Source: an uncultured Mycoplasmatota bacterium | GTDB taxonomy: Bacteria; Bacillota_I; Bacilli_A; RF39; UBA660 | Direction of reading: 5' to 3' | Assembly (NCBI GenBank): GCA_900544605.1 | Contig: UQVP01000002.1 | Coordinates: 13,709-77,708 of the forward strand | Length of the DNA: 64,000 bases | Shown here: one piece after another, positions 61,889 through 62,208 of the stretch | Numbering within the stretch: position 1 is the first letter of the stretch | Layout: each line of letters opens with the position of its first letter | Made by a program: the position numbers and the translations under genes | The notes under the pieces: generated by a model | What the model saw: only the letters and a program-made list of their open reading frames with translations | Database searches by the model: none | Told to the model about the DNA's origin: nothing

Positions 61889-61917
61889 TTGTATTCGTTA
61901 TATTATTTTATTATAAT
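61889..61917 (+). promoter_or_regulatory. Promoter of small-toxin mRNA 2
   Basis: TTGTAT (61889-94), a 17-nt spacer, then TATAAT (61912-17). Confidence 0.55.
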
Positions 61918-61982
61918 GTTCATGGATATATTTAATTAGCGTTAGGTGCACTCCTTTTTAACAAAAAAAGGAGGTGATTCTT

Positions 61983-62060
61983 ATGACTAGCAGAGAAAAA
62001 TTTCTCCATATCATAATTATTCTCCTATTTATTCTGGTATTTATTTTACTGTTTAAATAG
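61983..62060 (+). CDS. 25-aa hydrophobic peptide, type I toxin candidate 2 (paralogue)
   Basis: MTSREKFLHIIIILLFILVFILLFK*. The ribosome-binding site AAGGAGG is sequestered in a 9-bp hairpin (61951-59 with 61965-73). Confidence 0.6.
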   Translation: MTSREKFLHIIIILLFILVFILLFK

Positions 62061-62170
62061 AAAAGCACACTAACGCTTCGTCTGGAGCATTAGTGTGACA
62101 CAACAAAGAGTGTACCTAACCACACGAAAGTTAAGTATATCCTTTTTATTTTATGAAGAAACCTTCATCT
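62058..62170 (-). ncRNA. Predicted antisense antitoxin RNA 2 (~110 nt)
   Basis: Minus-strand promoter: TTTACA (62205-00), a 17-nt spacer with TGn, then TATTAT (62182-77). Hairpin 62066-62097 is followed on the minus strand by a U-rich run. Confidence 0.45.
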
Positions 62171-62208
62171 ATATACATAATAACATTTTTTTATATAAAT
62201 GTAAAGAT

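Follow-up and report, generated by a model that had tools for sequence, protein, structure and literature searches.

A diverged tandem module of an uncultured Mycoplasmatota bacterium probably belongs to a widespread, unannotated family of type I toxin-antitoxin-like loci with bsrG/SR4-like architecture

In the bsrG/SR4 system of the Bacillus subtilis SPbeta prophage, which belongs to the wider group of TxpA/RatA and BsrE/SR5 (PMC3834814, PMC3531473, PMC6563280), structure probing of the bsrG mRNA has shown that nucleotides 1-35 at the 5' end pair with nucleotides 232-262 at the 3' end, forming a bulged helix, P1, that encloses the Shine-Dalgarno (SD) stem and the open reading frame (ORF) (PMC3834814). 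The SD sequence is part of a stem, and the antisense RNA, SR4, overlaps the mRNA at its 3' end (PMC3834814). Surveys find toxin-antitoxin (TA) systems of type I to be narrowly distributed, probably owing to searches that rely on similarity to known toxins (PMC5367252, PMC12390103). Here we describe a locus, module 2, for which bsrG/SR4 is the closest described system. Module 2 occupies positions 61889-62205 of a 64,000-nucleotide (nt) stretch of contig UQVP01000002.1 from an uncultured Mycoplasmatota bacterium. We refer to this whole stretch, which has a G+C content of 25%, as the window, and all coordinates are window positions unless a locus label precedes them. Module 2 is probably one copy of a chromosomal type I TA-like family, and our comparisons support the view that this family is unannotated and widespread but of a known kind, namely type I TA with bsrG/SR4-like architecture.

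The plus strand of module 2 begins with a sigma-70-type promoter, TTGTAT-N17-TATAAT (61889-61917), whose -35 hexamer is weak, agreeing with TTGACA at 3 of 6 positions. The predicted start is G61924, 7 nt past the -10 hexamer, and the predicted toxin mRNA (61924-62152) runs for 229 nt from this first paired G to the end of a U-run. Despite the low G+C content of the window, this mRNA folds stably: its minimum free energy (MFE) is -71.6 kcal/mol, compared with -37.3 ± 3.9 kcal/mol for shuffled sequences (z = -8.7), and none of 200 shuffles equals it. The two ends of the mRNA are united by the helix P1, in which 61924-61937 pairs with 62129-62142, and by a second helix, P2, in which 61940-61953 pairs with 62108-62120. 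Within the first block, GGATATATTTAA is complementary to TTAAGTATATCC with one G-U pair; within the second, GTTAGGTGCACTC is complementary to GAGTGTACCTAAC, again with one G-U pair. Both blocks appear in the MFE structure, and the 5'-terminal base of the mRNA pairs with the final base ahead of the U-run. The U-run TTTTTATTTT (62143-62152) abuts P1; the toxin mRNA presumably ends there, and the U-run is also a possible single-stranded toehold. The 3' strands of P2 and P1 (62108-62142) can alternatively make a local hairpin with one another.

The ORF at 61983-62060 encodes a 25-amino acid (aa) peptide, MTSREKFLHIIIILLFILVFILLFK, with a charged N-terminus, a single membrane-spanning stretch of about 18 hydrophobic residues in succession and a C-terminal Lys. 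As expected for a type I toxin, it is a small (<60 aa) hydrophobic membrane-spanning peptide. The SD sequence, GGAGG (61970-61974), is found 8 nt ahead of the ATG and is part of an anti-SD/SD hairpin (61951-61974). An initial annotation of this DNA had buried the SD in a 9-bp hairpin, and its two strands, CTCCTTTTT (61951-59) and AAAAAGGAG (61965-73), are indeed exact complements. However, the full hairpin and the second block of the end-to-end helix are mutually exclusive, because CTC at 61951-53 is common to both. In the MFE structure, GGAGG pairs with UCUCC within the ORF, so the SD is occluded in either fold, and its unpaired probability is 0.09. The z-score of the fold and this low accessibility indicate a structured toxin mRNA with a sequestered ribosome-binding site, which is a second feature of type I systems.

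A third feature, a cis-encoded antisense RNA gene overlapping the toxin mRNA, is present in the form of predicted, conserved elements. Approximately 25 nt past the mRNA U-run, the minus strand carries a convergent promoter with an extended -10, TTTACA-N17-TGt-TATTAT (62205-62177), which starts 4 nt below the stop codon (62209-62211) of an ATP-binding cassette (ABC) exporter gene. This site is the best match of the promoter scan (10/12 plus TG), and the antisense promoter of the neighboring module 1, TTGAAA-N17-TAGAAT (61831-61803, minus strand), is the other of the two best matches regionally. The predicted antisense RNA, a putative antitoxin, would extend from 62170 to about 62057 on the minus strand (~114 nt) and would consist of a 5'-end hairpin, SL1, an A-rich linker, a second stem-loop, SL2, and a terminator; it folds at -33.4 kcal/mol (z = -3.9). 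SL1, ATGAAGAAACCTTCAT, occupies 62153-62168, and two variable pairs in it covary. The predicted terminator is a 12-bp hairpin at 62066-62097 that begins 5 nt after the toxin stop codon and is followed by CUUUUCUAUU on the minus strand. The antisense RNA is perfectly complementary to ~94 nt of the 3' untranslated region (UTR) of the mRNA, reaching the stop codon; it lies entirely 3' of the ORF and does not span the SD. The predicted cognate sense/antisense duplexes of modules 1 and 2 have energies of -169 and -171 kcal/mol, respectively, compared with -38 kcal/mol for the cross-module duplex, which forms mostly via the common last ~20 nt. These energies suggest that each antisense RNA would act only on the module that encodes it.

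The hairpin at 62066-62097 had been annotated as bidirectional, which proved incorrect. It forms in the mRNA too, but its T-run is on the minus strand only (CTTTTCTATT), the plus strand continues ACACAACAAAG, and a terminator scan called the hairpin (62097-62066) on the minus strand only. The remaining elements of the initial annotation were reproduced: the plus-strand promoter in both string and coordinates, the 25-codon ORF, the two-block pairing of the mRNA ends with one G-U pair each and the U-run after it, and the convergent promoter adjoining the ABC exporter stop codon.

Two side observations concern the ends of the antisense gene. The C-terminal Lys codon or codons, the stop codon and the A-run that follows (62055-62065, and likewise in relatives) form the template of the U-tract of the antisense terminator, and the K or KK with which the peptides end may therefore be under partial constraint from the antisense RNA 3' end. 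In addition, no terminator lies between the ABC exporter operon and the antisense gene (62097-62209, minus strand); read-through from the operon would add antisense transcription across the 3' UTR of module 2, ending at the same hairpin.

The family was collected with the pattern TTATTTTATGA-N8-TCATCT-NN-ATAC, a 3' motif common to three modules: the two of the window and one at a related locus, L008 (loci are labelled L001 onwards). A single motif scan of species-representative genomes returned at least 120 stretches, and the family counts given below rest on the matches listed. A profile that omits the searched motif (nhmmer) gave 141 matches in ~1 Mb of fetched loci, including 24 complete matches without the exact pattern, most of which deviate by only 1-2 nt from the searched bases. 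Among the matches listed, nearly all hosts are metagenome-assembled genomes (MAGs) labelled as uncultured Bacilli, Tenericutes, Mollicutes, Erysipelotrichaceae, Ca. Coprosoma, Firmicutes CAG:822 or Mycoplasma sp. CAG:611, and the sources are human, rabbit, chicken, mouse and ruminant guts. Multiple stretches from one genome are frequent among these matches, including in a closed 1.52-Mb chromosome, and about three of the matches, for example one in Ignavibacteriae, are due to chance. Modules often stand in tandem arrays of two or three, mostly spaced by 330-390 nt (L123:1069-1800, L039:1247-2176, L086, L125 and L030). Several contigs (L014, L020, L047, L064, L085, L096, L100 and L104) bear modules typical of the Bacilli set although they were deposited under the name 'uncultured Muribaculaceae' (Bacteroidota); these bins are probably mislabelled or contaminated.

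We compared 123 unique modules, 98 of which have a 5' region that pairs with its cognate 3' region at -27 kcal/mol or below. The predicted mRNAs of the family have a median length of 225 nt. In almost all of the 98 modules a -10 resembling TATAAT, in many cases with TGn, ends 5-8 nt ahead of the first paired GGA, so that the helix begins where the transcript is predicted to begin. Approximately 93 of the 98 have a hydrophobic ORF preceded by an SD, almost always with 22-43 codons. The peptides are mostly 22-34 aa long and fall into at least six unrelated classes on one RNA scaffold (22 to 43 aa, L010-L129). Both window copies belong to class A (MTKRExSxFIIILLLF...K), other examples are MNKKDFLILSLVIIIFLLLFLLFIVLI, MYMSQNRKFILQIFDYIITILWQVIFILSIMKK and MELLVAFAMIVLYTILILNNRD, and a 43-aa class occurs in L096 and L104. 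Downstream of the ORF there is a stable hairpin with a median of 12 bp that starts ~5 nt past the stop codon. In at least 71 of 96 modules it has an A-run ahead of it on the sense strand and thereby constitutes an intrinsic terminator for the antisense RNA. On the minus strand, TTGnnn-N17-TGnTAnnAT is conserved at a fixed position, beyond the searched bases. Thus, the elements that recur family-wide comprise both promoters, the hydrophobic ORF with its SD and the antisense terminator, which supports the earlier description of module 2 as a diverged tandem paralogue belonging to a family.

A further set of approximately 15-20 matches consists of the 3' part alone, that is, the P1 3' strand, the U-run, SL1 and the antisense promoter, with no 5' partner within 800 nt (for example, at pattern positions L012:6253 and L017:5397, and in L030, L033, L057 and L107). 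These matches look like orphan antitoxin remnants.

Comparison across the family shows that the features of module 2 are not due to chance. Cognate 5'/3' duplexes have a median energy of -34.6 kcal/mol, compared with -19.1 kcal/mol for non-cognate ones. From an alignment of 57 diverse copies, RNAalifold recovered P1, P2 and two hairpins, the post-stop one and the small 3' one, making four helices in all. In these helices, 94.6% of the alignment cells pair, compared with 83% after column shuffling and 34-41% when the partners are slid by 1-3 columns. Compensatory double changes occur in 23 of 28 pairs, including all 10 pairs of P1, 6 of the 7 pairs of P2 (in which 97.4% of cells pair) and 5 of 5 pairs of the post-stop hairpin, and double-change cells number 223, compared with 62 ± 8 in shuffled alignments, none of which attains 223 in 500 trials. 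It had been set out beforehand that homologous loci that fail to keep the pairing partners would refute a TA family; the partners are kept, and the structural covariation that had been proposed from the two window modules is evident when compensatory changes are scored across aligned homologues. The claim that the family is selectively maintained calls for qualification. Pairing is kept family-wide, but a lineage described below has lost the promoter, the SD and about half of the ORF of module 2.

The 5' strand of P2 has an additional potential partner. It is also complementary to the 5' arm of the post-stop hairpin (61940-61953 with 62066-62077 in the window), and this complementarity is cognate-specific and family-wide (-13.2 kcal/mol, compared with -8.9 kcal/mol for non-cognate and -6.8 kcal/mol for shuffled pairs, p = 3e-21). 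This alternative four-strand pairing could represent a co-transcriptional metastable fold.

From these elements we propose the following mechanism. The mRNA would be produced in a compact, nuclease-protected and poorly translated form, and the ~114-nt antisense RNA would bind its 3' UTR. First contact would probably occur between the terminator loop and the loop of the post-stop hairpin, as for SR4 and bsrG, and/or between the A-linker and the U-tail. Both the mRNA 5' end and the antisense body are complementary to one and the same mRNA strand, which makes the antisense body nearly a copy of the 5' end. Binding would thus require that the 5' end be displaced from P1 and P2, and would yield a duplex of ~94 bp. 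By analogy with bsrG/SR4 and txpA/RatA (PMC3834814, PMC3531473), RNase III would then cleave the duplex and expose the mRNA to decay. Were the antisense RNA exhausted, the stable mRNA would be translated at a low level and the peptide would harm the membrane.

Two models of how SD accessibility might respond to antisense binding or 3' trimming were evaluated by constrained partition-function folding of 93 family members. In an SR4-like model, CUC is released from P2 when the antisense RNA binds, and the SD stem becomes tighter; in a hok/aapA-like model, 3' trimming opens the SD. When the 3' UTR is blocked or 55 nt are removed, mean SD accessibility barely moves (0.160, 0.151 and 0.165 across the 93 members). 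With SD accessibility flat, neither model is supported in silico. Since antisense binding produces no modelled change in access to the SD, degradation is favored over translational control, and we favor the view that the antisense RNA would act via mRNA decay.

A broader reading joins these observations. It holds that the family is defined by its RNA scaffold, with a near-constant antitoxin head (promoter, 5' hairpin, A-linker and clamp sequence) combined with at least six unrelated toxins; that the antitoxin mimics the mRNA 5' end and opens the 5'-3' clamp by toehold displacement; and that the four-strand pairing is part of programmed co-transcriptional folding. On this reading the clamp may double as the terminator stem of the mRNA. 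We put forward this combination only tentatively, as possible but doubtful. If it is true, toehold-mediated clamp displacement would be a mode that has not been described for type I antitoxins.

Several points weigh against a type I TA family. All of the hosts are uncultured, and both RNAs and the toxicity are predictions. The search pattern fixes 21 bases of the 3' motif, so ascertainment accounts in part for how conserved these bases are. A terminator hairpin of its own is lacking in the mRNA, which means that termination must use P1 itself or the weaker local hairpin of the 3' strands, and this local hairpin extends to the U-run in just 47 of 92 copies. Modelled blocking or removal of the 3' end leaves the SD shut and so does not account for the activation of translation. 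Finally, Gram-positive type I toxins have a charged C-terminal tail (PMC6563280), and the family peptides have a terminal K or KK only.

The absence of such a tail, the very short length of the peptides and the predicted status of their toxicity are all compatible with an alternative in which module 2 is the gene of a harmless small membrane protein, such as an accessory subunit or regulator, under cis-antisense control and without TA behavior. Also compatible with it is the coding constraint apparent in the ORF, where differences at the three codon positions number 1792:583:2000 and the synonymous fraction of changed codons is 0.375 in frame, compared with 0.196 and 0.057 out of frame. We nevertheless consider this alternative unlikely. 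A single harmless protein does not readily account for multiple copies and tandem arrays in small genomes with variable neighbors, or for at least six unrelated peptide classes that share the RNA scaffold. Nor does it account for the extreme occlusion of the SD and AUG, whose median unpaired probabilities in the family are 0.10 and 0.03, respectively, compared with 0.41 and 0.35 in 31 ordinary genes of the window. Furthermore, the toxin half is repeatedly lost while the antisense half is kept: we observed T-to-G or T-to-C mutations in the toxin -10, deletion of the toxin 5' half with the antisense part left in place, and many orphan 3' remnants. Such patterns of decay are typical of toxin genes.

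A type I TA module requires that the antisense RNA be real, and a second alternative holds that only the plus-strand small-protein mRNA is, the minus-strand elements being conserved on other grounds, for example the formation or stability of the mRNA 3' end. The minus-strand RNA is a prediction, and promoter-like hexamers are abundant in such AT-rich DNA, with 8 found and 8.0 expected in a local scan. However, the two minus-strand sites of the window are the sole 10/12 matches with TG in that scan, and the corresponding family promoter holds its fixed position outside the searched bases. Strand-specific wobble points the same way. In imperfect copies of SL1 (ATGAAG...CTTCAT), 8 changes give A-C on the sense strand, and hence G-U on the antisense strand, and 0 give the reverse, which indicates that SL1 belongs to the antisense RNA. 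Likewise, the local hairpin formed by both 3' strands is more stable in its antisense-strand version in 70 of 92 copies, and the minus-strand hairpin and U-tract after the stop codon recur in at least 71 of 96 modules. We therefore regard a plus-strand transcript without an antitoxin partner as very unlikely.

Wobble asymmetry also bears on the possibility that module 2 is a miniature mobile element, similar to a miniature inverted-repeat transposable element (MITE), with the end-to-end helix as a terminal inverted repeat that has no role in RNA. The modules are multi-copy and intergenic, and their presence is polymorphic between related genomes, as a mobile element would be. However, in the long-range helices, formed by the first 45 nt and the last 45 nt, the imperfections are nearly all G-T on one strand: 246 are G-U on the sense strand and 17 are A-C mismatches, where the imperfections of a DNA repeat would be symmetric. 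This asymmetry excludes both a DNA-level inverted repeat and an antisense-strand origin for these helices, and on this ground we rejected the MITE reading, to which we assign hardly any probability. In addition, the repeat begins exactly at the predicted transcription start, a constrained ORF lies inside, copies within a genome are diverged and covarying and not near-identical, and no target-site duplications or links to transposases were seen. Least credible of all is that the region simply serves the ABC exporter operon as its 3' UTR and terminator, or holA as its leader: although the minus-strand hairpin (62097-62066) could also halt read-through from the exporter (stop codon at 62209), a species whose HolA is 79% identical has the same two genes 65 nt apart without an intervening module and a related module elsewhere in that locus, between holA and rarA, and family members occur in many unrelated contexts, which together exclude a neighbor's 3' UTR as a general explanation.

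The two window modules, spaced at a period of 388 nt, are flanked by two minus-strand genes: holA (60445-61389) on one side and the ABC exporter gene, which adjoins them with its 3' end (stop codon at 62209), on the other. The tandem paralogue, module 1 (61501-61831, plus strand), has a promoter at 61501-61529, a predicted mRNA at 61536-61778 (z = -10.3 for its fold), an ORF at 61608-61684 that encodes MTKREYSLFIIILLLLFIVIILLLK, and a hairpin at 61690-61723. The UTRs of the two modules had been said to differ almost everywhere; this was overstated, for the promoters, P1, the SD region and ~45 nt of the 3' end are conserved.

Orthologous loci were gathered by a HolA homology search, as an exact look-up of HolA gave no match because the start codon differs. 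By its HolA homologues the organism falls among uncultured gut Firmicutes, and a protein identical to its HolA occurs on 65 contigs. Where HolA is 97% identical (L001-L003), both modules are present and are themselves 97% identical. Where HolA is 93% identical (L004-L006), module 1 is kept (92%) and module 2 is truncated: the 3' UTR/antisense part remains (96%), and the promoter, 5' UTR, SD and roughly the first half of the ORF are missing (L004-L006:2970-3030). In the species with 79% identical HolA (L008), the module between holA and rarA is of a third kind (class C, 4524-4802, plus strand). It encodes MTKRIFVLKVLKYISIILFLFTILVIVIKKDI, its ends are GGAATATTCAGT...ACTGAATGTTCC, and it retains the end-to-end helix with a different sequence. 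Modules thus appear to come and go at neighboring intergenic sites. Toxin promoters are damaged differently from strain to strain: the -10 of module 1 is TATAAG in the window (61524-61529) and TATAAT in L001-L004, and that of module 2 is TATAAC in L001 and L002. Both modules are intact in L003 only, and the antisense promoters mostly survive. This strain-specific damage looks like recurrent silencing of a harmful gene.

The suggestion that the family is undescribed is consistent with all of our searches. A search of Rfam 15 at E <= 10 across 60000-64000 gave only chance matches (e.g., bantam and snoRNAs), and at the gathering score 10 family loci gave a T-box only. Searches of Pfam, NCBIfam and PHROGs with up to seven peptide types returned nothing significant; there was no Pfam or NCBIfam family at E <= 1-10, the best NCBIfam match being HokA at E = 0.12, with 12 bits against a cut-off of 89. 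Ten family peptides, including both from the window, were absent by exact look-up from a collection of 15 billion proteins; for peptides of <30 aa, homology E-values against billions of sequences are uninformative. Literature searches returned no description of the family and none linking RF39-type bacteria with TA systems. When phage and plasmid records were searched by BLAST with module 2, the sole match was a chance one of 43 nt, and a pattern scan of IMG/VR gave one match on a viral contig, which is probably due to chance. We therefore dropped an association with prophages or plasmids.

Another type I family is unsurprising per se. The value of this one lies in the depth of its covariation, the swapping of toxins, an antitoxin that would mimic the mRNA 5' end, and hosts with reduced genomes. 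It was detected via RNA architecture alone, it has no record in current resources, and it is multi-copy in uncultured gut Bacilli with small genomes, which points to a systematic gap in how MAGs are annotated. With over 100 diverged copies and clear covariation, it makes up a comparative set on how toxin mRNAs fold shut, and the exchange of toxins on a constant regulatory scaffold amounts to a natural experiment. The family also offers candidate short membrane-active peptides and candidate orthogonal sense/antisense pairs for engineering.

Among described systems, the CD-toxin/RCd modules of Clostridioides difficile resemble the family in being present on the chromosomes of gut Firmicutes in multiple copies, and in combining a cis-antisense RNA with a hydrophobic toxin of short length (PMC5961336, PMC6563280). 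However, the C. difficile toxins are 34-59 aa long with charged C-termini, and their genes are linked to prophages and CRISPR arrays (PMC5961336, PMC6563280); we saw no such linkage here and no sequence relationship. The Fst/RNAII (par of pAD1) and SprA1/SprA1as systems share with module 2 a Gram-positive host, a small hydrophobic toxin, convergent transcription and an SD in a stem-loop. The RNAs of par share a bidirectional terminator and interact via 5' direct repeats that lie outside the overlap (PMC8594479). In module 2, by contrast, the hairpin terminates the minus strand only, each RNA has its own 3' end, and the interaction would fall within the overlap; there is also no Pfam match to Fst_toxin.

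With aapA1/IsoA1 of Helicobacter and hok/Sok, module 2 shares a full-length mRNA that is locked by a 5'-3' interaction with its SD sequestered (PMC5416894, PMC6733600), and alternative local hairpins that could be co-transcriptional metastable folds. The 5'-3' lock alone is common to them. The hok/Sok and aapA1/IsoA1 hosts are Gram-negative, their peptides have no homology to that of module 2, and their antisense RNAs target the 5' region or ORF of a 3'-processed, activated mRNA, whereas the antisense RNA of module 2 would target the 3' UTR only. Furthermore, removal of the 3' end leaves the SD shut in our models, unlike in those systems.

The bsrG/SR4 system differs from module 2 in several respects. 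Its mRNA has a separate terminator stem-loop, SL4, whereas P1 of module 2 abuts the U-run; its antisense RNA is 183 nt long, compared with ~114 nt here; BsrG has 38 aa with its charge cluster at the C-terminus, whereas the module 2 peptide has 25 aa with the cluster at the N-terminus; and the loci described here are chromosomal and lie outside any recognizable prophage. The tightening of the SD stem by SR4 was not reproduced in silico, and the Pfam, NCBIfam and Rfam searches gave no sequence homology to a toxin or antitoxin of the TxpA/BsrG type. Nevertheless, the defining layout of that type, an antisense RNA that overlaps the 3' part of a convergently transcribed toxin mRNA together with a long 5'-3' helix P1, is found in module 2. 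The two systems also share an SD in a stem, a stop-codon hairpin with a loop that could contact the terminator loop of the antisense RNA, a small hydrophobic peptide and an expected decay of the duplex by RNase III. The architecture of module 2 is thus less unprecedented than the initial annotation implied, and bsrG/SR4 provides a close parallel to it.

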